Source: Syntrophales bacterium
GTDB lineage: Bacteria; Desulfobacterota; Syntrophia; Syntrophales; UBA6807
Assembly: GCA_040767195.1 (NCBI GenBank)
Contig: JAXGPA010000007.1
Coordinates: 32,001-96,000 of the forward strand
Direction of reading: 5' to 3'
Length of the DNA stretch: 64,000 nt
In this document: in pieces, positions 42,459 to 54,961 of the stretch
How the letters are laid out: every line of letters starts with the position of its first letter
Position numbering within the stretch: the stretch's first letter is position 1
The notes under the pieces: generated by a model
Database searches by the model: none
Seen by the model: only the letters and a program-made list of their open reading frames with translations
What the model was told of the DNA's origin: nothing
Position numbers and translations under genes: made by a program

Positions 42459-42989
42459 ATGGACGACCTTCTCCTTCTGAAAGCCCTGGCCTTTGCCGCG
42501 GAAAAACACCGGGGCCACCGGCGAAAGGATGCCGAAGCCACCCCATACATCAACCACCTGGTGACGGTAGCCCTCCTTGTCGCCGAGGCCTGTCGAAAGG
42601 TGGACCGGGAGGTCGTCGCTGCCGCCCTGCTCCACGACACCCTGGAAGACACGGACACGTCCCCGGACGAACTGGAGGTGGTCTTCGGGCCCCGTGTGCG
42701 GGGCCTCGTCGAGGAAGTGACGGACGACAAGTCTCTCCCCAAGGACAGGCGCAAGAGGCTCCAGGTGACCCATGCCCCCTTGCTGTCGCGGGAGGCGTCG
42801 ATGGTGAAAATCGCCGACAAGATCTCGAACGTCCGGGATATCCTGGAACGGCCGCCGGCCCGGTGGCCCGAATCCCGGAGGCAGGCGTACCTCGCCTGGG
42901 CGGCGGAAGTCGTGGCCCGCTGCCCGAAAACGGGAACGGACCTGGAAAAACTTTTTTTTGAAACCCTGAAGAATAGATCCTTCCCGTGA
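42459..42989 (+). CDS. HD-domain (p)ppGpp hydrolase-like protein (Mesh1/small alarmone hydrolase)
   Basis: RK..PYINH, LLHDTLEDT, VTDD, KIADK. Confidence 0.85.
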   Translation: MDDLLLLKALAFAAEKHRGHRRKDAEATPYINHLVTVALLVAEACRKVDREVVAAALLHDTLEDTDTSPDELEVVFGPRVRGLVEEVTDDKSLPKDRRKRLQVTHAPLLSREASMVKIADKISNVRDILERPPARWPESRRQAYLAWAAEVVARCPKTGTDLEKLFFETLKNRSFP

Positions 42990-43216
42990 TCAGGAATGGT
43001 CACGCACGGTCATTTTTAACCAGAAGCGCAAACATAAAATAAGGGGACAGCTTTACGTTCTTTTATCAAAAATGTTTGATTCCCTTCAGCGGATGCGATA
43101 GAAAGACGGCGCTTACGGGAATGGAAGAGCTTGCTTTCCCGCCGCCCGTGGATGTAGCCGGCTGGAACGGAAATTGCTCAAGACGGTGTAACAATGAATC
43201 ATGGATGGAGGTTTCA

Positions 43217-43927
43217 ATGCGAAAAAAAGTAATGTTGCTGTGGATACTGGCGTTCATGATCCCGGTCTTCGCGTCGGCGGCGTTCGCTGAATGCGTGGAT
43301 GGGGACTGTGTCAACGGCAGGGGAAAATACGTGTACCCCGACGGGCGCGAGTACGAAGGAAGTTTCAAGGACGGCGTGCCCCACGGACGGGGCGCTTTCA
43401 CCTATCCCGACAAAAAAGAGAAACGGGGGGATAGGGTTCTCACCTATCTCACCGGCGGCCGTTACGAGGGGGAAATCAAAGACGGAAAGAAAGAAGGCCG
43501 GGGACGATTTTATTATACGAACGGCAGCGAATACAAAGGCCTCTTCAGAGAGGATAAGAGGGAGGGGGAAGGTACCCTGACGTTCAAGGACGGCTCGAAA
43601 TACGATGGGGAATTCAAAAACAACAAGATGGACGGAAAGGGTGTCATGACAAACGCCGACGGGAGCCGGTACGAAGGGGAATTCAAGGAAGGGAACCCCC
43701 ACGGGAAAGGCATCTTCACCTTTGCTGACGGCCGGAGATACGAAGGGGACTTGAGGGAGAACCGGATTACGGGAAAGGGAACCCTGCTCTTTCCCGATGG
43801 ACGGAAATATGTCGGTGAGTTCAAGGAAGAAACCATGAACGGGGAAGGAACCCTGTTCTATCCGGACGGACGTAAGCAGACCGGCCGTTTCGAGAACGGC
43901 GAATTCGTGTCGGAGAAGACGGAATAG
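43217..43927 (+). CDS. Secreted MORN-repeat protein
   Basis: Signal peptide, CVDGDC, about 8 YEGxFKxG..xGxG repeats of 23 aa. Confidence 0.9.
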   Translation: MRKKVMLLWILAFMIPVFASAAFAECVDGDCVNGRGKYVYPDGREYEGSFKDGVPHGRGAFTYPDKKEKRGDRVLTYLTGGRYEGEIKDGKKEGRGRFYYTNGSEYKGLFREDKREGEGTLTFKDGSKYDGEFKNNKMDGKGVMTNADGSRYEGEFKEGNPHGKGIFTFADGRRYEGDLRENRITGKGTLLFPDGRKYVGEFKEETMNGEGTLFYPDGRKQTGRFENGEFVSEKTE

Positions 43928-43985: not shown

Positions 43986-45122
43986 ATGTATAAACACAGA
44001 CATATAGCGGTGATTCTTTCCCTGCTGATTACCGGCCTTCTTCTATTCCCGGCCGCCGGGGAGGGAAAGGCGGAGGGAGAGTTCAGTCTTCGCGTCTTTC
44101 ACACGGGCAACGTGGCGGGCAAGGTGTCGCCCTGTTCCACCTGAGGCGGCTCCACGTTGGGCGGTCTGGCCCGGCGCGTTTCCTATATTCTCGGAGAAAG
44201 ATCCCGGGATGGGGCCATTCTCGTCGTCGATTCGGGCAATCTTTTCCCGAAACGGAAAACGGAACGGGCCGGCGGCACCGAAACCGGGACCGCCGGTCTC
44301 CTGGCCAGGGCTTATGGCCGTATGGCCGTTGACGCCGTAAACGTGGGCCCGGCGGAAGCCGCCATGGGACGGGAGTTATTCAGCCGGCCGGAGATCAGTC
44401 GGCTGCCCTGGATTTCTTCAAACATCGTCAACGAACGGGGCGACCCCCTGTTTGATCCTTATATCATAAAGAATGTCGGTAACGTGCGTGTCGGTATCCT
44501 GGGGTTCACCAGCCTGGCGGACGATCCCGCGATCAAGAAGGGATTCGGGAGCGGCCATGCCGTTGCCGATCCCGTTACCGCCACCCGGAAGATCATCGGG
44601 GAGATTTCCGGAAAAACGGATGTGATTCTGGTCTTGTCCTGCCTGGCTCCCGAAGAGATTCGCCGGCTTGCGGCGGAAAATCGCGGGACCTGTTTCATCC
44701 TGGGCGGCGGGGAGGGGAGGACAACCGTCCACCCGCACCGGGAGTCGGAGACCCTGGTGCTCCGGTCCGGCAAAGACGGGATGTACGTGGGCCGCCTCAA
44801 CCTGTCCTGCACGGGTTCCATGACGGGGTTTCTGGATGCCGAAGAAGAAAGCCGTCTCCACCTGGAACTGCAGAACCTGGAACAGCGGATAGCCGCCCTC
44901 GTGAAAGCCCGGCAAAACAAGGACACCCCCGCCCTGGAGAAAATGATCGGCGACCTGTTATCGAGAAAATCAGCCCTGGAAGAAAAATTGACGGCCATCT
45001 GCGCCTGCGGGACGGAGACGGGAAAATTCACATGGGATCTTGTTCCCATGGAAAGCGACATCCCCGGGGATGAGACCGTTCTCGACTGGATCCGGGAGGC
45101 GGGCCTGGAGGGATCGTCGTGA
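43986..45122 (+). CDS. Exported UshA-like (5'-nucleotidase N-domain fold) selenoprotein, CxxU motif
   Basis: ATG 43986 plus signal peptide, in frame through TGA 44142-44144 (PCST-U-GGSTLGGLARR) with the downstream ORF 44157..45122; SECIS-like hairpin follows. Confidence 0.8.
44155..44176 (+). promoter_or_regulatory. Bacterial SECIS-like hairpin
   Basis: CGTTGGGC-GGTCTG-GCCCGGCG; the G-initiated loop begins 18 nt after the UGA. Confidence 0.7.
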
Positions 45123-45143: not shown

Positions 45144-45641
45144 ATGGGGAAGACGAAAAAAAACGCGTTTCAGGCGGCCCTGCTCATCCTCGGGAGCATC
45201 CTCGCGGCGACGGCCTTCAACGCCGTGAGCCCGTCAGGCCTTCCATGGCTGGGCGACTGGTCACCCGGGGCGGTCGCCGGGCTCTACCTGGAAGACCTGG
45301 ACGAGATCACCGCTGACAGGGTTCTTGTGCTGGAGCGGGAGGGTCTCCTTGTCTTTCTCGACCCCCAAGACCCCGTGTTTTACAGCGAGGATCCTCCGCC
45401 CGGTTCCATCAATGTCACGCCCCGGAACGTCCCGGCCATGATCGATGAAATCAGGGTTCTCGCCGGTGCGGGATTGAAGCTCGTCATCCTCTGCGACGGC
45501 GGCCGCTGTACCCGGGGAATGGAACTGGCCCGGGTTCTCGAGAGCCGTGGATTTCGTGATTTCAAAATTTTCAGGAACGGGGAGTCGAGAAGCTCGGAGA
45601 AGACGGACGGCGCGTCGGTCCCGGGAAAGGAGAACTCGTGA
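45144..45641 (+). CDS. Membrane-anchored rhodanese-like protein (degenerate)
   Basis: N-terminal TM, PGSINV, LCDGGRC loop. Confidence 0.65.
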   Translation: MGKTKKNAFQAALLILGSILAATAFNAVSPSGLPWLGDWSPGAVAGLYLEDLDEITADRVLVLEREGLLVFLDPQDPVFYSEDPPPGSINVTPRNVPAMIDEIRVLAGAGLKLVILCDGGRCTRGMELARVLESRGFRDFKIFRNGESRSSEKTDGASVPGKENS

Positions 45642-46102
45642 ACCGGGCGCGCCGGGTGAGAGAAAAATGGTTTGCGGCGGTTCTGCTTGTTTCACGGCTT
45701 TTTCTCGGAGGGGTCTTCCTCTTCTCCGGCGTGACGAAAATCCTCGAGCCCGGGGGGTTCGCCCTTTCCATCTATCATTATCAGCTCCTGCCCGATCTCC
45801 TCGTCAACCCGGCGGCCATCATACTGCCCTGGGTCGAGGTAATCTGCGGTATGGCCCTGATCCTGCGCTGGTGGGTCGGCGGCGCCTCTCTTGTCGTCAC
45901 GGGGCTTCTGCTCGTCTTTCTGATGGCCCTCGCCATCACCCTCGTCAGGGGCCTCGACATCTCCTGCGGCTGTTTTTCCTCGACAGGGGAAGGAAAAATA
46001 TCCTGGTGGTATCTCCTCCGGGACTTCTCCCTTTTCGCCATGGGAATCCTCATTCTTCTTTTTCACGACAGGGAAACCGGCGGGCCGCCGGCTGAAGCCT
46101 GA
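45638..46102 (+). CDS. MauE/DoxX family redox-associated membrane protein
   Basis: GGVFLFSG..K, PWVE, GLDISCGCF, LLRD. Confidence 0.88.
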   Translation: MNRARRVREKWFAAVLLVSRLFLGGVFLFSGVTKILEPGGFALSIYHYQLLPDLLVNPAAIILPWVEVICGMALILRWWVGGASLVVTGLLLVFLMALAITLVRGLDISCGCFSSTGEGKISWWYLLRDFSLFAMGILILLFHDRETGGPPAEA

Positions 46103-46585: not shown

Positions 46586-48583
46586 ATGATGCCCATTTTT
46601 GTCAGTCTTCCCGAGGCCATGGTCAAGCTGAAAGTGGTGACGATCAAGGGGTCCTTTGAAAAGGCCCTTTCCACGCTCCAGGGCCTGGGTGTTCTTCACA
46701 TCGAGGAAGCCAAGGAACTGACCCCCGTCGAGAAGGAAGCCATCGAAGACCGGCGGGCCCAGGTCAGGAAGGCCCTGGCCTCTGTTCAGGACATCCTGTC
46801 CTTTCTGCCGGGGGAAAGAGAGGTCTTCATCGGGGATGTCCCTCCTACCGTCGATGAAGCGCTGCGAGGGGTGGAAAAACTTCAAAACGAGATTTCAAGG
46901 CGCCTGTCGGACATTCAGAAGACGGAGCAGGAAATTTCCAGGTCCGGAGACCTGGAACGCTACCTGGCCGTTCTCCCCGGCAGCGGGGGTATGTCCCTGC
47001 GGGACTTTCACTACGACGGGCCCTATCTTTTCACCGCCGTTTATGTCTTCACGGAAGAAGCCTCTCGGACCTTCCGGGAGAAGTCTTCCGCTTATATCAT
47101 CGATCTCGTGAGCGCTTCCGCGGGCAACGAGGCCGTCGTCTTTGTGGTGGCCAGGAAGGATGACAGAAAGGTCCTGGAAGACACCGCGTCGGCCCTGGGG
47201 GCCGCCGCGATCGCCGTGCCGGAAGGGGACCGGGCGCTTGCCGACTTTCTCGGAGAGGAAAGAAAGCGGCAGGAAGACAGGGAAGGCCGCCTGGCCCGCC
47301 TGCGAGCGGACCTCCAGGCGTGCATCCTGGAGAATCTGCCCGACCTGGCCCAGCACCGGGAAATTCTGGCGGCGGAATATGAGCGCCTTTCAGCCCTGGA
47401 CTGGGCCAGCGGAACCTCTTACGTGACCCTCATGGAGGGCTGGATTCCTAAAGGAGACGTGGAAAACGCGACAAGCCGCCTCCGGGAAGCCGTGCCTTAC
47501 AGTTTCGTCGATACGAGACCCCCGGAAAGGGGTGAAGAGCCGCCCACGCGGCTCCGGAACCCGAAGGGGGTCCGGCCTTTCGAAGTGGTCGTCAAGCTCT
47601 TCAGCATTCCCCGCTATGGCGAGTGGGACCCCACGCCGGTGGTGGCCTATTTCTTCGCGTTTTTCTTCGGTATCATGCTGAACGACATGGTCTACGCCGT
47701 GGGACTTCTTCTCCTGGCCCGTTTTTTCCTGGACAAGCTCGTCGACGACCCGACAAGCGAGGGAACCCGGCTTTTCCGCAATGTCCTGTACATCGGCGGG
47801 CTCGTTTCCCTGGTTTTCGGGATTCTATCGGGAACCTACCTGGGCGATTTTCTGAACCGCTACTTCGGCATCGAGCTGGACACCCTGGCCCTGTCCCGGG
47901 CTGTCCAGGCAAAGCTTTCCGACCCCATCTCGTTCATCGTCCTGGCACTCATCATCGGCCTGATCCACCTCAACCTGGCTCACATGTTCGGGTTCATCAA
48001 GGGAATCCGGGAAAAAAGCTGGGGCATCGTCCTCAACAAAATCGGCCTTTTCCTTCTCCAGATCTTCGGCATTCCCTACCTGTTCCACGGGATGCTTCAG
48101 ATCGACCTGATCCCCGTGAGCCCGGCCCTTTACGGGAGCTTCGCCTATCCCATGTACGGCGGCCTCATCCTGGTCATCGTCGGCAGCGTGGTCCAGATGG
48201 GCGCCCTGGGGGGTGTGTTCTGGCTCTTCGACGTGACGGGCATCCTGGGGGACGTCATGTCATACTCCCGTCTTGCCGGCGTGGGGTTGGCCACCTTCTA
48301 TCTCGCATCATCCTTCAACCTTCTCGCCGAGTGGGTTTCCCGGGGCGTGTCCTCGGCCGTCCCGGGGATTATCGGCGTCGCCATAGGATTCATCCTGGGG
48401 GTCGCTCTTCTTCTCATCTTTCACGTCTTCAATCTCCTTCTCAGCGTTCTGGCGGCGTTCATCCACTCCCTCAGGCTCTGTTTCGTCGAGTTTCTTCTTA
48501 AATTTTTCGAGGGAGGGGGCCGGGAATACGATCCCCTGCAACTGAAACATCGCAAGAGAGTCATCTTGGGTAAAAAATCTTAA
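46586..48583 (+). CDS. ntpI: A/V-type ATPase subunit I (a)
   Basis: EGWIP, PPTRLRNP, EWDPTP, SYSRLAG, HSLRLCFVEF. Confidence 0.95.
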   Translation: MMPIFVSLPEAMVKLKVVTIKGSFEKALSTLQGLGVLHIEEAKELTPVEKEAIEDRRAQVRKALASVQDILSFLPGEREVFIGDVPPTVDEALRGVEKLQNEISRRLSDIQKTEQEISRSGDLERYLAVLPGSGGMSLRDFHYDGPYLFTAVYVFTEEASRTFREKSSAYIIDLVSASAGNEAVVFVVARKDDRKVLEDTASALGAAAIAVPEGDRALADFLGEERKRQEDREGRLARLRADLQACILENLPDLAQHREILAAEYERLSALDWASGTSYVTLMEGWIPKGDVENATSRLREAVPYSFVDTRPPERGEEPPTRLRNPKGVRPFEVVVKLFSIPRYGEWDPTPVVAYFFAFFFGIMLNDMVYAVGLLLLARFFLDKLVDDPTSEGTRLFRNVLYIGGLVSLVFGILSGTYLGDFLNRYFGIELDTLALSRAVQAKLSDPISFIVLALIIGLIHLNLAHMFGFIKGIREKSWGIVLNKIGLFLLQIFGIPYLFHGMLQIDLIPVSPALYGSFAYPMYGGLILVIVGSVVQMGALGGVFWLFDVTGILGDVMSYSRLAGVGLATFYLASSFNLLAEWVSRGVSSAVPGIIGVAIGFILGVALLLIFHVFNLLLSVLAAFIHSLRLCFVEFLLKFFEGGGREYDPLQLKHRKRVILGKKS

Positions 48584-48596
48584 GGAGAGGTGAGAT

Positions 48597-49064
48597 ATGA
48601 CGACCATTCAAGCCCTGGCGACGTTTGGCGGTGCGCTGGCACTGGCGGGAGGACTGGCGGGTTCCGCCATGGGAATCGCGAATGCCGGTTCGGCGGGCAC
48701 GGCGACGCTTTCCGAGGACGCGGGACAGCTCCGGAACGTGATCGTCCTGGCGTCCCTGCCCATGACGCAGACCTTTTACGGCCTCATCATCCTGATCATC
48801 ATCCTGACCGTTTCCATGCCCAAGCTGCCGGAAGCGGGAGGGACAGGGATCGCCATGGTCGGAATCGGTCTCATGGCCGGGTTCGCCGAGTTTTTCTCTG
48901 CCATTTTCCAGGGGGCCGTCTGCGCTTCCGGTATCGCCCTCCTTCCGAAAACAAAGGGCAGGATCCTGACGGCATCGATGATGCTGGCCGTTTTCGTCGA
49001 GTTGATCGGCGTTCTCGGTCTCGTTTTCACGATCATGGCCCTCAGCATCCTCAGGCTCATGTGA
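48597..49064 (+). CDS. ntpK: A/V-type ATPase subunit K (four-helix proteolipid)
   Basis: GSAMG, LPMTQTFYG, AIFQG, VFVEL. Confidence 0.93.
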   Translation: MTTIQALATFGGALALAGGLAGSAMGIANAGSAGTATLSEDAGQLRNVIVLASLPMTQTFYGLIILIIILTVSMPKLPEAGGTGIAMVGIGLMAGFAEFFSAIFQGAVCASGIALLPKTKGRILTASMMLAVFVELIGVLGLVFTIMALSILRLM

Positions 49065-49077
49065 AAAGGGGAAGACC

Positions 49078-49674
49078 ATGGACACGAGCAAACTGAGAGA
49101 GGCCATTCTCGACAAGGCGCGGGAGGAAGCGGACCGGATTCTCGCCGATGCCGAGACGAAATCCCGCGAAATTGTGAAAAAGGCGGAGGACCAGTTCCGG
49201 GAAAGGGTCGAATCGGAAAAGAAAAAAATCCTGTCGGAAGCCCGGCGGGAATCGGCGAAAAGGGTGGCCCAGGCATCCCTGGAGGGGCGCCAGTCGATTC
49301 TCCGGGAAAAGGACAGGATTATCGGGGATATCCTCGACAAAGTCCGGGCGAGCCTCAAGGAGACATCCCTGGAAGAGGGAAACCTCCGCAAGCTGGTGCG
49401 GGAAACCATCGAGGCCTTTGAATCGGATGTGCCGGTCCGGCTTTACGGGGCCCCCCGGGACCTGCCGGCCCTCCAGGCCCTTGTCGCGGAGGACGGCGAC
49501 CTGGGGAAACGGGTCATCGACGTCCGCGAAAAGGAGGGGCTCGGCGGAATCCTGGCCGAGACGGAAGACGGCATGGTGAGTATCGACAACACCTTCGAAA
49601 CCCGGCTTTCCATGCTTCTGCCCGATATCATGCCCGAGATGGCAAAAAGACTTTTTGGAGAAGGGGACCATTGA
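49078..49674 (+). CDS. ntpE: A/V-type ATPase subunit E
   Basis: Coiled N-terminus, GGIL, IDNTFETRL; operon position. Confidence 0.9.
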   Translation: MDTSKLREAILDKAREEADRILADAETKSREIVKKAEDQFRERVESEKKKILSEARRESAKRVAQASLEGRQSILREKDRIIGDILDKVRASLKETSLEEGNLRKLVRETIEAFESDVPVRLYGAPRDLPALQALVAEDGDLGKRVIDVREKEGLGGILAETEDGMVSIDNTFETRLSMLLPDIMPEMAKRLFGEGDH

Positions 49675-50714
49675 ACCTGACCAGCACCCGCTACGCCTTT
49701 CTGTCAGCCTATGTGAAGGGGGAGGAGGCCCGGGGTGTCCAGGGAGAACACGTTTCGACGATCCTCCAGAGGGCCCGGACCGTCCAGGAAGCCCTGGAAA
49801 TCATCCGGGACACCGATGTGGGAGAGGCGCTCCGGGAAGAAACCTGGAAAACCTACCCCGAATTCGAAAGCCGCCTCTGGAATGCCCTGTCGGAAAACCT
49901 GGCCCGGGTCCGCCGCTTCGCCCTTCCCGAGGGCATGGGAACCATGATACGGGTTTTTCTCAACCGGTTCGATCTTTTGAACATCAAGCTCGCCCTTCGG
50001 GCCGTTCAGGAGGAAAAGTCCTTCGTTCCCGTGCCGCTTGGCTCACTCCACGACGAGGGACTTCTCGACGACCTGTCCCGGGTGAAAACCCTTCCCGATC
50101 TCGCCTCTTATCTGCCGGCGGCGGGCCTGGGTGAATACGGCGATATCCTGTGGGACGTCAAGGAACTGGATGAAAAAATTATCCTCGACCTGGAGCGGGT
50201 TCTCGACGGTTTTTACAACGAACGGTGGGTAAAAACCCTGGGGAGCCTGGACGAAGGGTCCCTTTTGGTCCGGGTACAGGGGATTTTTATCGATTATGCC
50301 AACCTCCGCGCGGTGTTCCGGCTCGTTACCGGGGGCCGGGGAGCCGTGTCGGAGAACATATTTCTCGAGGGCGGCCACCTTCTGGACATGGCCACTCTCA
50401 GGGAATTTCTCACCCTCAGTCCTGGCGAGATCGTCACGCGGCTTGGCAACACCGAATACGAGTATGCCGTGTCCGACCTGGCCCGGGGCCTGGAGAAGGG
50501 AAAGTCCGTCGGAACCATCGACCAGATCCTGGACCGCCACCTGTACCGGACCGTCCGGTACCTGCTGGCACCCCGGGCCCTGTCTCCCTGTACCCTTTTA
50601 TGGTATCTCCTCGTCAAGGAACTGGAAGCGAGGAACCTGAGAATGATTTTCAAGGTTCTTCATGATGGCGTCCCTGTCGGGGAAATTCGGGATTTCATGG
50701 TGATGGCCACATGA
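49671..50714 (+). CDS. ntpC: A/V-type ATPase subunit C (d)
   Basis: RFDLLNIKLALR, KELEARNLR; operon position. Confidence 0.88.
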   Translation: MNLTSTRYAFLSAYVKGEEARGVQGEHVSTILQRARTVQEALEIIRDTDVGEALREETWKTYPEFESRLWNALSENLARVRRFALPEGMGTMIRVFLNRFDLLNIKLALRAVQEEKSFVPVPLGSLHDEGLLDDLSRVKTLPDLASYLPAAGLGEYGDILWDVKELDEKIILDLERVLDGFYNERWVKTLGSLDEGSLLVRVQGIFIDYANLRAVFRLVTGGRGAVSENIFLEGGHLLDMATLREFLTLSPGEIVTRLGNTEYEYAVSDLARGLEKGKSVGTIDQILDRHLYRTVRYLLAPRALSPCTLLWYLLVKELEARNLRMIFKVLHDGVPVGEIRDFMVMAT

Positions 50715-50719
50715 GAGGA

Positions 50720-51067
50720 ATGGACGATTTTCAGATTGCCGTGATCGGAAACCGGGACGAGACCAACCTGTTGCGGCTCACCGGCGTCCGGAAATACGTG
50801 CTTTTCGATGAAGAGGACCGGGGCCTTCCGGAAAAGCTCCGGACAGCTCTCGACGATCTGGCCAAGGACCCTTCCGTGGGGCTTGTCCTGGTTCCCGATG
50901 CGTGGGTGGAACATGTTCGGGACAAGATGAAAAAGATCCGGTCGGAGAAACGGGCGAAGACGGTCATCATCGAATACCCCGCCCGATACCGGGAGGAAGA
51001 GCGGGATATCCGTCAATACTACAAGGCCCTGACGAGAAGCCTCATAGGCTTCAACGTGGAGATCTGA
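50720..51067 (+). CDS. ntpF: A/V-type ATPase subunit F
   Basis: IAVIG.RD...LRLTGV, IIEYP, LIGF. Confidence 0.88.
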   Translation: MDDFQIAVIGNRDETNLLRLTGVRKYVLFDEEDRGLPEKLRTALDDLAKDPSVGLVLVPDAWVEHVRDKMKKIRSEKRAKTVIIEYPARYREEERDIRQYYKALTRSLIGFNVEI

Positions 51068-51085
51068 CCCGGTGACGGGGGGAGT

Positions 51086-51125
51086 AAGGGCAGCGCAGCC
51101 TGCGGGTTTTTTCACGAAGTCGTCA
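51086..51125. repeat. Partial copy of the 34957-35122 repeat
   Basis: AAGGGCAGCGCAGC...TTTTCACGAAGTCGTCA matches AAGGGCAACGCAGC...TTTTTACGAAGTCGTCA. Confidence 0.65.
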
Positions 51126-51151
51126 AAATAACGGGAAGAGAGGCGCTTGCT

Positions 51152-52906
51152 ATGGGAAGGATTTGGAGAGTTTCAGGTCCCGTCGTTATTGCCGAGGATA
51201 TGCGGGGTTCCCAGGTCTACGAGGTGGTGGACGTGGGAGACGAGAGACTCACCGGGGAAATCATCGGCCTCGAGCAGGATAAGGCGGTCATCCAGGTATA
51301 CGAAGACACGGTGGGCCTCCGGGTAGGGGAACCGGTGGTGGGGACCGGCGAGATCCTCATGTGCGAACTGGGTCCCGGCATGGTGGGAAACATCTATGAC
51401 GGCGTACAGCGGTCCCTGGTCACCATGATCGAGGACATCGGGGATTTCCTGCACCGGGGAGTCCGCACGGACGCCCTGGACCGGAACAGGAAATGGGAAT
51501 TCGTACCCACCGTGAAGGCCGGAGACACCGTTCAGGAAGGGGACGTCATCGGGACCGTTCAGGAAACCGGTCTCATCGAGCACCGGATCATGGTACCCAT
51601 AGGGCTGGGCGGCAAGATTCTCGAGATCAGCGAGGGGAAATTCACCATCCTCGACACCGTCGCCGTCCTGGAAGAGAACGGCACGAAAACCCCCCTCACC
51701 CTTATGCAGCGCTGGCCCGTTCGGAAACCCCGGCTGTACAAGCGCCGCCTCGACCCGGTCAACCTCCTCGTCACGGGGACGCGGATCATCGACTATCTCT
51801 TTCCACTGGCCCTGGGCGGCAAGGCGGCCATCCCCGGCGGATTCGGTACCGGCAAAACGGTGAATCTCCAGCAGATGGCCCGCTGGTCCCAGACCCAGCT
51901 CAACATCTACGTGGGCTGCGGCGAGCGGGGAAACGAGATGGCCGACGTCCTCCACAGCTTCAAGAAACTCCGGGACCCGAACACGGACCGGCTTCTCCAG
52001 GAAAAAGAGATCTTCATCGCCAACACCTCCAACATGCCCGTGGTGGCCCGGGAGATCAGCATCTTCATCGGCATCACCATGGCGGAGTACTTCCGCGACA
52101 TGGGCTATGACATCCTTCTCGTGGCCGACTCCACGTCCCGCTGGGCCGAAGCCATGCGGGAGATCGGGGCCCGGCTCGAGGAAACGCCGGGCGAGGAAGG
52201 ATTCCCCACGTACCTGGGTTCCCGGCTCGCCACCTTCTACGAACGGTCGGGGAGGGTGGAGTGCCTCGGCCGGCCGGAACGGACCGGGTCGGCCACCGTC
52301 ATCGGCTCCGTGAGCCCGCCGGGGGCCGACTTCAGCGAACCGGTCACCCAGTCCACCCTGCGGATCGTCGACGCGCTCTATTCCCTTGACGTGGCCCTGG
52401 CCAACCGGCGCCACTTTCCTACCATCAACTGGCTTCAGAGCTACAGCCTTTACTCCGATTCGGTGGGCCTGTGGTGGAAGAAGGAAGTGGATCCCGAGTA
52501 TCACACCGTCCGGGACCGGGCCCTGGTGACGCTCCAGCGGGAGGCGGAACTGGAGGAAATCGTCCGCCTTGTCGGTCCCGAGGCCCTTCCCGAGGAAGAC
52601 CGGCTTCTCCTTCTCGTGGCCCGCATGATCCGGGAGGATTTTCTCATGCAGAGCGCTTACCATCCCGTAGACACATACACCCCCCCGGAGAGGTCCCACA
52701 AGATGCTCGCCACCATTATCCGGTTTGCCGACACGGCCCGGGAACTCTCCGAGCAGGGCATGATGGTCAATGAAATCCAGGGGCTCAAAATCGTCCCCCG
52801 GATTTCGAGAATGAAGGACGTTCCCCTGGAGGAACTGGACACCTACATCAAAGATCTCTGGTCGGACATGGAAAAGCTCGTGACGACCCGTGAAGGAGGG
52901 ATGTGA
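51152..52906 (+). CDS. ntpA: A/V-type ATPase catalytic subunit A
   Basis: PGGFGTGKT, GCGERGNEM, DSTSRWAEA, FYERSG. Confidence 0.97.
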   Translation: MGRIWRVSGPVVIAEDMRGSQVYEVVDVGDERLTGEIIGLEQDKAVIQVYEDTVGLRVGEPVVGTGEILMCELGPGMVGNIYDGVQRSLVTMIEDIGDFLHRGVRTDALDRNRKWEFVPTVKAGDTVQEGDVIGTVQETGLIEHRIMVPIGLGGKILEISEGKFTILDTVAVLEENGTKTPLTLMQRWPVRKPRLYKRRLDPVNLLVTGTRIIDYLFPLALGGKAAIPGGFGTGKTVNLQQMARWSQTQLNIYVGCGERGNEMADVLHSFKKLRDPNTDRLLQEKEIFIANTSNMPVVAREISIFIGITMAEYFRDMGYDILLVADSTSRWAEAMREIGARLEETPGEEGFPTYLGSRLATFYERSGRVECLGRPERTGSATVIGSVSPPGADFSEPVTQSTLRIVDALYSLDVALANRRHFPTINWLQSYSLYSDSVGLWWKKEVDPEYHTVRDRALVTLQREAELEEIVRLVGPEALPEEDRLLLLVARMIREDFLMQSAYHPVDTYTPPERSHKMLATIIRFADTARELSEQGMMVNEIQGLKIVPRISRMKDVPLEELDTYIKDLWSDMEKLVTTREGGM

Positions 52907-54309
52907 TGGAAGCACGGCAACTCTTCACCCGGGAGACAAAAGCCATCAGCACGGCCCGGCGCTCCCTTCTGGTCATCGAAAGCATTCCCGGTATCCGGTA
53001 CAACGAGATCGTGGAAGTACAGCTGGGAACCGGTGAAACCCGGGTCGGCCAGGTCATCGAGGTGGGGAAGATCACCACCGTCGTCCAGGTCTTCGGCGGG
53101 GTGAGCGAGGTGGACCTCCTGAACAGCCGGGTCGAGTACAAGGGGCAGACCCAGAGGCTCCCTGTTTCCCCGGACATCCTGGGCCGGATTTTCGACGGCA
53201 GCGGAAACCCCATAGACGGCGGCCCCCCTATCGTGGCGGACGCCTACCACGACATCAACGGCGTTCCGGCCAACCCGGCGTCCCGGTTGCCGCCGGCGGA
53301 ATTCATCGAAACGGGAATCTCCGTCATGGACGGCCTGAACGTCCTCGTCCGGGGCCAGAAGCTCCCCCTTTTCAGCGGGTCCGGGCTTCCCCACAACCGG
53401 ATCGCCGCGCAGATCGTCCGCCAGGCGGCCCTGAAGAGAAAAGCGGAGGAATTCGCCATCGTCTTCGCCGCCATCGGCGTGAGCTTCGACGACGCGGCCT
53501 ACTTCATCGCCAACCTGGAAGAAACGGGGGCCCTGAACCGGGCCATCGGGTTCATCAACACCGCCTCCTCCCCGGTCATCGAGCGCCTCTCCACGCCCCG
53601 GCTCGCGCTGACGGCGGCGGAATATCTCGCCTGGGAAAGGGACATGCACGTCCTCGTCGTTCTCACCGACATCACGAACTACTGCGATGCCCTTCGGGAG
53701 CTGGCGGCCATGCGGGGAGAGATCCCCAGCCGCCGGGGCTACCCCGGGTACATGTACACCGACCTCGCCACCATGTACGAGCGGGCGGGGCGGATCTCGG
53801 GCAAGGAGGGGTCGGTGACGATCCTTCCCATCCTCACCATGCCCGACGACGACATCACCCACCCGATCCCGGACCTGACGGGGTACATCACCGAGGGGCA
53901 GATCGTCCTCTCCCGGCCCCTCGAAAGGAAGCGGATCTACCCGCCCATCGACGTGTTCCTCTCACTGTCGAGGATGATGAAAGAGGGTATCGGCGAGGGG
54001 AACACCCGGGAAGACCACAACAACGTTTTCATGCAGTCCTATGCCATGTACGCCGAGGGCAATTACCTTCGGGAGATTTCCACGGTCATCGGGTCCGACG
54101 CCCTGAGCGACCGGGACCGGATTTATCTTTCCGCGTCGGACCGCTTCGAGCGGGAATTCATTTCCCAGGGTGAATTTGAGCGCCGGTCCGTCGAGGAAAC
54201 CCTGGAAATCGCCTGGAATATCTTTTCAATGGTACCCCAGGAAGATCTCAAGCTGATCCAGGAGAAGTTCATCCAGAAGTATCTGCCGAAGAAAGGAAAG
54301 ACGTCGTAA
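52903..54309 (+). CDS. ntpB: A/V-type ATPase subunit B
   Basis: GQKLPLFSG, RRGYPGYMYTD, HPIPDLTGYITEGQI. Confidence 0.97.
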   Translation: MMEARQLFTRETKAISTARRSLLVIESIPGIRYNEIVEVQLGTGETRVGQVIEVGKITTVVQVFGGVSEVDLLNSRVEYKGQTQRLPVSPDILGRIFDGSGNPIDGGPPIVADAYHDINGVPANPASRLPPAEFIETGISVMDGLNVLVRGQKLPLFSGSGLPHNRIAAQIVRQAALKRKAEEFAIVFAAIGVSFDDAAYFIANLEETGALNRAIGFINTASSPVIERLSTPRLALTAAEYLAWERDMHVLVVLTDITNYCDALRELAAMRGEIPSRRGYPGYMYTDLATMYERAGRISGKEGSVTILPILTMPDDDITHPIPDLTGYITEGQIVLSRPLERKRIYPPIDVFLSLSRMMKEGIGEGNTREDHNNVFMQSYAMYAEGNYLREISTVIGSDALSDRDRIYLSASDRFEREFISQGEFERRSVEETLEIAWNIFSMVPQEDLKLIQEKFIQKYLPKKGKTS

Positions 54310-54310
54310 G

Positions 54311-54961
54311 ATGGCAGCGAAGATCCAGGTCACGCGGCCCACCAAGATCGAGCTGGCCCGCCTCAAGCGGCGGTACCGGCTTGCGACGCGAATCCAGAAG
54401 ATCGTCAAGGACCGGCTTTCCATTCTTGTCATGGAGTTTCTCGAAACGGTCAAGGAATGCGCCATCGTGAAGGAGCGTCAGGCGTCGGAATTCAACGAGG
54501 CCTACCGGGCCCTTTCCATGACCAGCGGGTATCTCGGGTCGGAGGAACTGGAAAAGGACCTTTTCGCCGTGGAGATGCCCCTGAAAATGGTGGGAAAGAC
54601 CCGGAACGTGGCGGGAGTTCGCATTCCTCTCTTCGAGGTGGAGCGGGATGAAACCGTGGCCCTGAAAACCGCCGTCCGCCCCGGAATGACCGCCGTCGAG
54701 GAGGACACCATCACCGCGGCAAGGCGCTGCCTTGAATCGATCATCGAACTCGCGGAACTGGAGAATTCTCTCGAGCTGCTCGGGTCGGAAATCAACAAGG
54801 TGAAGCGGATCAACAACGCCCTGGAATACATCGTCATCCCGGGGCTGAATGCCACCATCCGCTACCTCAACATGAAATTCGAGGAGCGGGACCGGGAGGA
54901 AAACGCCCGGCTGAAGTACGTCAAGCTCCTCATCGAGAAGCGGGAAGCCTATGCCTATTGA
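54311..54961 (+). CDS. ntpD: A/V-type ATPase subunit D
   Basis: PTKIEL, KRINNALEYIVIP, EERDRE. Confidence 0.95.
   Translation: MAAKIQVTRPTKIELARLKRRYRLATRIQKIVKDRLSILVMEFLETVKECAIVKERQASEFNEAYRALSMTSGYLGSEELEKDLFAVEMPLKMVGKTRNVAGVRIPLFEVERDETVALKTAVRPGMTAVEEDTITAARRCLESIIELAELENSLELLGSEINKVKRINNALEYIVIPGLNATIRYLNMKFEERDREENARLKYVKLLIEKREAYAY

Follow-up and report, generated by a model that had tools for sequence, protein, structure and literature searches.

UshA-like selenoproteins were flagged in 2008 as abundant and without a recognised redox motif (PMC2398784). The known family carries a Cys-x-Sec (CxU) motif; it is tabulated as 'COG0737, UshA-like, CxU' in PMC2398784 and as 'UshA-like protein, CxU' in PMC9312934 and PMC13188914, and is captured by the curated model NF041198 (PCGU type). 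A second curated model, NF049981 (UshA-like (seleno)protein family 2), is entered with a CxxU motif in the table of PMC13188914. Our literature search, with most subscription journals and supplements outside its reach, found no functional study of UshA-like selenoproteins. Here we describe an uncatalogued side branch of these proteins that lies outside both curated models, starting from one gene in a 64,000-nucleotide stretch of a Syntrophales genome (hereafter the window; its genome is G000).

The gene begins with an ATG at 43986 and meets an in-frame TGA at codon 53, in the context P-C-S-T-U-G-G, beyond which the frame stays open until a stop codon at 45120-45122. The earlier note had read this arrangement as a hidden selenoprotein that standard callers would cut short, and the truncation was borne out: gene calling with table 11 returns 44157-45122 only, and the protein database entry for this gene (P0002) is this short form. 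The features of the gene are as follows.

43986..45122, + strand: UshA-like CxxU selenoprotein gene, 378 residues if TGA53 is Sec
44007..44048, + strand: hydrophobic core of the predicted signal peptide, residues 8-21 (hydropathy 2.75 over 11 residues)
44109..44720, + strand: degenerate metal and catalytic columns N42, A44, N85, P122, A123, C219, G242 and G244, from alignment to 2z1a and to the intact nucleotidases of relatives
44133..44144, + strand: C50-S-T-U53 motif (Sec codon 44142-44144)
44155..44176, + strand: bacterial SECIS hairpin, 8 pairs with a 6-nt G-led loop
44838..45002, + strand: two-helix hairpin insert, residues 285-339, from the predicted model; optional in the family

The TGA is a genuine feature of the genome. 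Contigs from runs X1 and X6, which belong to two different studies, span TGA53 with zero letter differences, and two metagenome contigs that are 99% identical to the gene also have the TGA; together these rule out an assembly error. The contig of run X4 spans the codon with two differences, one of them without an assigned place, and run X12 has no coverage there. A strain-specific nonsense mutation was likewise rejected. Contigs from RNA runs cover the gene, coverage that is not in itself a sign of expression; a promoter scan returned nothing for this gene, and Pfam gave zero matches on the read-through protein. The protein is likely to be exported by its predicted signal peptide, as had been proposed, and a signal-peptide-like hydrophobic stretch, judged by hydropathy only, occurs in 44 of 45 groups of relatives. 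We consider it very likely that this is a real selenoprotein gene truncated by gene callers.

Relatives were collected by scans with an alignment of close relatives, using search patterns that left out the Sec column itself. We took in 19 genome loci, the best 80 of 145 metagenome loci and the window's own locus; 93 of these could be anchored and seven could not. Near-duplicates occur among the 93, and clustering at 90% identity gives 49 groups. The 93 comprise 88 CxxU, three CxxC, one CxU and one xxU form, with homologues aligning across conserved flanks on both sides of the UGA, as a selenoprotein reading had predicted. The seven unanchored loci comprise three CxU forms, one CxC form, one ordinary nucleotidase and two CxxU forms with a variant anchor. 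By group, 48 of 49 have Cys in the first motif column, and all 49 have Sec or Cys in the Sec column; the family consensus around Sec reads P-C-P-T-U-G. Among database proteins, nine of the 12 close matches are cut at the UGA and the others are natural Cys forms; P0008-P0010 carry Cys at the Sec column. Profile searching of the protein database yielded just one more match, a distant one. The closest relatives with named records are Syntrophales, and 15 of the 201 genomes drawn from this class contain a match to the window's branch (E under 1e-45). Where G000 has CxxU, a genome of the same genus, G001, has a CxxC form at exactly the same position. A quick tree of 32 rows nests the CxxC forms and one xxU form within the CxxU branch, and both are therefore derived. 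In the part of PMC1794560 used here, Sec-to-Cys changes are described as rarer than the reverse.

Several further copies were noted during this survey. G000 has a second UshA-like gene (L064, C1:524493-525647, - strand) with an in-frame TGA of the xxU type, no upstream Cys and the same SECIS loop. An xxU-type paralogue lies directly upstream of the counterpart of the window's gene in relatives L079, L100 and L101, and is absent from that place in the window. L150 is a tandem pair of CxxU genes followed by rhodanese-like and MauE genes. Two copies look broken, L024 (in G019) and L094: one has a second TGA and a deletion, the other an early stop. Compared with L100 and L101, residues 81-200 of the window's protein (44226-44585) are 35-50% identical and the flanking blocks 62-95%, a patchiness which hints that the central part of the gene has recombined or changed rapidly.

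Downstream of the UGA, the stem-loop at 44155-44176 places its first loop G 18 nt after the UGA, has a loop starting with GG and folds at -15.2 kcal/mol. The rules for bacterial SECIS elements given in PMC13188914 are a loop of 3-9 nt, a stem of 4-16 bp, a G within the first two loop places, a distance of 16-37 nt from the UGA and an energy of at most -7.5 kcal/mol; the window's hairpin lies within every one of them, in agreement with the geometry first seen in the sequence. Against shuffled sequences it is near chance (z -1.8 for a 31-nt stretch, -0.14 for 59 nt), and although 53 of 61 real sequences pass a test for the presence of a hairpin, so do 53% of synonymous recodings (mean z -1.54). 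Such a test carries little weight, since the encoded peptide itself favours a hairpin, and we therefore relied on codon constraint and covariation. For the codon test we used 45 groups with one CxxU locus apiece, one group being left out. Stem and loop are formed by codons that read GGC in 44, GGT in 43 and GCC in 44 of these groups, against backgrounds of 0.30, 0.14 and 0.41, and one stem pair changes by two silent substitutions (G-C in 32 groups, T-A in eight, G-A in five and T-C in none); the groups are relatives, and hence non-independent. The identical six-base loop, at equal distance, recurs in two of the four UGA-bearing formate dehydrogenase genes of G000 and in L064. The Cys form L079 retains the hairpin codons, so Sec genes are not the only ones under this constraint; this would fit a recent loss of Sec in that gene. 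By codon constraint and compensatory synonymous change, the SECIS element is under selection.

Structure prediction (pLDDT 80.8, from a 15-row alignment) gave a metallophosphoesterase over residues 28-377 that aligns to E. coli UshA residues 27-358 only; the C-terminal nucleotidase substrate domain is absent, as noted from the sequence. In a fold search the model matched 1ush, 2z1a and 2wdc with Z 28.8-29.7 and rmsd 2.4-2.8 over 263-271 residues, SoxB (Z 28.8) tying with the nucleotidases (UshA, Z 29.7). The protein thus shares the N-terminal metallophosphoesterase fold of UshA and SoxB, but has no intact metal ligand, catalytic His or substrate domain. The nucleotidases of relatives keep HxNDxHG, GDM, GNHEFD, SHxG and GHSH, whereas every one of these is altered in the window's protein (N42-V-A, D82-S-G-N85, G121-P-A-E, S218-C219 at the SH column and G241-G-E-G), in keeping with the degenerate motifs that the earlier note had listed. 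An active nucleotidase was accordingly rejected: none of the DxH, GD, GNH, SH and GHxH motifs of active UshA is present. Other columns, GGxAR, VDSG and SxN, are invariant or nearly so across groups.

The same model argues against the note's description of a thioredoxin-like CxxU variant. The fold is a metallophosphoesterase, and the CxxU motif sits in a loop modelled as coil, away from a helix start; a thioredoxin fold was therefore rejected. No thioredoxin-fold chain stands among the 50 fold matches listed, which is not a test by itself. The placement of C50 and U53 relative to the old cleft is tentative, since it comes from a poorly predicted loop, with pLDDT under 50 at residues 51-53. The coiled-coil insert described earlier is present as a predicted two-helix hairpin and does not define the family: it occurs in 30 of 47 complete groups and is missing in 17.

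How does this protein compare with the curated families? Its N-domain matches positions 7-372 of the 519 in NF041198 with 168.9 bits, Sec lies in the same loop ahead of GGxxR, and members of that model over its cut-off lack the same metal ligands. It differs in carrying P-C-S-T-U (CxxU) rather than P-C-G-U (CxU), in scoring below the 275-bit cut-off (11 clade members score 158-233) and in stopping at residue 378, without the model's part 373-519 and its CxxCH domain; in the quick 32-row tree the window's branch is a separate clade (SH-aLRT 98). None of the 201 genomes of this class has an NF041198 match over cut-off. Three CxU proteins, L090, L093 and L095, carry four CxxCH motifs each and show the same ligand loss as the window's protein; L095 scores 468 bits on NF041198 and is the sole CxxCH-bearing group among the 49. 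Because L095, over cut-off, shows it too, the ligand loss belongs to the known NF041198 family. NF049981 shares the UshA-like fold and the CxxU motif and is covered over positions 1-252 of 262, but the window's protein scores 84.4 bits against a cut-off of 140, half its NF041198 score, in a comparison made by model score only; all 13 relatives scanned score 51-88 bits. The earlier note was thus right that UshA-like CxU selenoproteins are known, and the lost ligands and CxxU that it took as new are already found in NF041198 members and in the NF049981 listing, respectively. Motif order, with Sec second, also recalls the SelW-like and AhpD-like CxxU redox selenoproteins in the motif column of PMC2398784; this is a likeness of motif only, and their fold is unrelated.

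Two genes follow directly in the window.

45144..45641, + strand: membrane-anchored rhodanese-like protein with an invariant C-x4-C, 21 nt downstream of the selenoprotein gene
45638..46102, + strand: MauE/DoxX membrane protein with a conserved C-G-C, overlapping the rhodanese-like gene by 4 nt

The rhodanese-like protein scores 19 bits on Pfam Rhodanese, below cut-off, and its relative L172 scores 42.6 bits; the C-x4-C invariance comes from alignment A4. Further downstream, 46586-54961 holds what we take, from the gene calls, to be a V/A-type ATPase operon, and an HD-domain gene and an exported-looking MORN-repeat gene lie upstream (42459-43927). Of the 49 groups, nine had too little flank; downstream, 21 have a VKOR-thioredoxin-fold fusion with three Cys pairs, six have rhodanese-like plus MauE and five have a SurA_N protein; the two SurA_N neighbours seen at full length are thioredoxin fusions with CxxC. 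All three module types carry conserved Cys pairs; they are unrelated to one another and stand in different lineages. The rhodanese-MauE pair is found in both halves of the clade, downstream of CxxU, CxxC and xxU forms. Near the G001 paralogue there is a CcdA/DsbD-type gene, two genes upstream. In the 201 class genomes, a VKOR fusion match is present in 137; in 11 it is next to an UshA-like gene or one gene away, ten of these being one family. The rhodanese-like gene is present in 31 and adjacent in four. On these figures, the count of 21 largely reflects one inherited arrangement. An obligate complex with one partner was rejected, as the partner modules are in most cases seen without this gene.

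We propose that the protein is an exported selenoprotein in which an inactive nucleotidase scaffold carries Cys-x-x-Sec for a thiol/selenol redox relay in the envelope, and we give this reading roughly an even chance. SelB would read UGA53 as Sec, and the signal peptide would export the product. Sec53 would then attack a disulfide, persulfide or oxidised cysteine of a substrate, Cys50 would resolve the bond so formed, and the membrane thiol module encoded downstream would reset the C50/U53 pair: here the C-x4-C rhodanese-like protein with MauE, elsewhere a VKOR-DsbA-type or thioredoxin fusion. Such a module would take the place of the multiheme domain of NF041198 members. We favour a relay because the downstream modules are Cys-paired, relatives are fused to hemes and Sec is kept where the first Cys is lost; a redox role had also been suggested in the earlier note. 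The unbroken Sec or Cys of the Sec column, next to a first Cys that the nested xxU form has lost, points to Sec as the key residue. Counting against a relay, metal and arsenic transport genes are equally frequent upstream, and the partner modules are mostly found away from such selenoprotein genes.

Those upstream genes raise the possibility, which we consider unlikely, that CxxU is a periplasmic binding site for arsenite or a soft metal ion, which it hands on to efflux or detoxification. A CDF transporter gene stands upstream in 20 of the 49 groups, and about nine more groups, in several lineages, have ars-type or cobalt-type genes there (arsenate-reductase-like, Acr3, arsenite methyltransferase, ArsP-type permease and PDGLE). 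The CDF neighbour is, however, mostly confined to one lineage, no metal or arsenic gene flanks the window's copy, and the single-Sec xxU forms suit chelation poorly. Thioredoxin-type genes are frequent in ars clusters, which makes such company compatible with a redox reading too.

Another use for Sec53 would be as a new nucleophile over the old cleft, with the protein and its rhodanese-like neighbour transferring or cleaving sulfane sulfur much as SoxB-fold sulfur enzymes do. The SoxB tie in the fold search, the rhodanese-like gene in six groups and the conserved GGxAR, VDSG and SxN columns would suit this. SoxB requires a dimetal site, though, which the window's protein has lost; most members have no rhodanese neighbour, and the conserved columns may owe their constancy to structure or to the SECIS element. 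We regard this account as quite improbable. If the protein had only a binding or scaffold role, without catalysis, and its Cys-Sec bond just stapled a loop, this would explain the loss of all catalytic columns, and loop disulfides are frequent among exported proteins; this reading is a poor candidate nonetheless, given that Sec is retained in nearly all members despite the cost of a constrained SECIS and that xxU forms have no partner Cys.

Sec insertion itself calls for selA, selB, selC and selD, the genes that the earlier note had proposed to look for. In G000, selA and selB score over cut-off and four formate dehydrogenase genes with one TGA apiece are intact, but searches of the assembly with family models, tblastn, blastn and nhmmer detected neither selD nor tRNA-Sec (selC), and a loose tRNA scan gave noise only. 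A 39-nt degenerate copy of the tRNA-Sec 3' end follows an AT-rich stretch (G000:C1:720241-720279, + strand) and looks like an old integration scar. The assembly is rated 98.8% complete, yet yields no tRNA-Ser or tRNA-Asn at default settings. In G001, going by the translations, selC lies among what are presumably uvrA, mfd, nadA and moeA, and selD among presumable alr, ddl and thrC; the genes around both have zero orthologues in G000, with the absence of uvrA and alr confirmed by family searches. Because whole surrounding blocks are missing too, the absence of selC and selD, which initially resembled a refuting outcome named in the earlier note, is most likely an assembly gap. More widely, of 61 genomes searched 53 have selD above cut-off, and tRNA-Sec was found in 10 of 13. 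A 2787-base contig of run X1, with a depth of 34.3 against 29.5-34.1 at the window's gene, has moeA running into the start of selC; its moeA is ~84% like that of G001, and depth and 30 bases hint that it belongs with G000. That selC and selD are truly lost, TGA53 ends translation and the gene is a relic, as the failed searches and the 39-nt remnant might suggest, is thus highly improbable in view of the missing blocks, the other unassembled tRNAs, the intact selA, selB and formate dehydrogenase genes, the prevalence of selD and the moeA-selC contig.

The UGA-bearing formate dehydrogenase genes of G000 lie on C8 and C1. A rough UGA scan of this genome gave 23 candidate matches, most of them probably noise; at C1:179205 (+) and C6:98712 (+) are an MsrA-like and a glutaredoxin-like frame with UGA, which we label provisionally from their motifs. 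G001 has a second tRNA with a TCA anticodon (L181, C15:7918-8009), beside a SelB-like paralogue with 43% identity to its SelB.

The branch exposes an annotation gap, in that neither curated model captures it. It also offers natural controls in its Sec, Cys and single-Sec forms, including Sec and Cys forms at one genomic position within one genus, together with candidate partner proteins. More speculatively, and with a rather low probability, these selenoproteins may be the soluble component of an as yet undescribed envelope system of anaerobic syntrophs, in which the selenol would act on sulfane sulfur or arsenic-thiol adducts and the electron link would be interchangeable: fused hemes in the PCGU type, and a VKOR-DsbA fusion, a thioredoxin fusion or rhodanese plus MauE in the window's branch.
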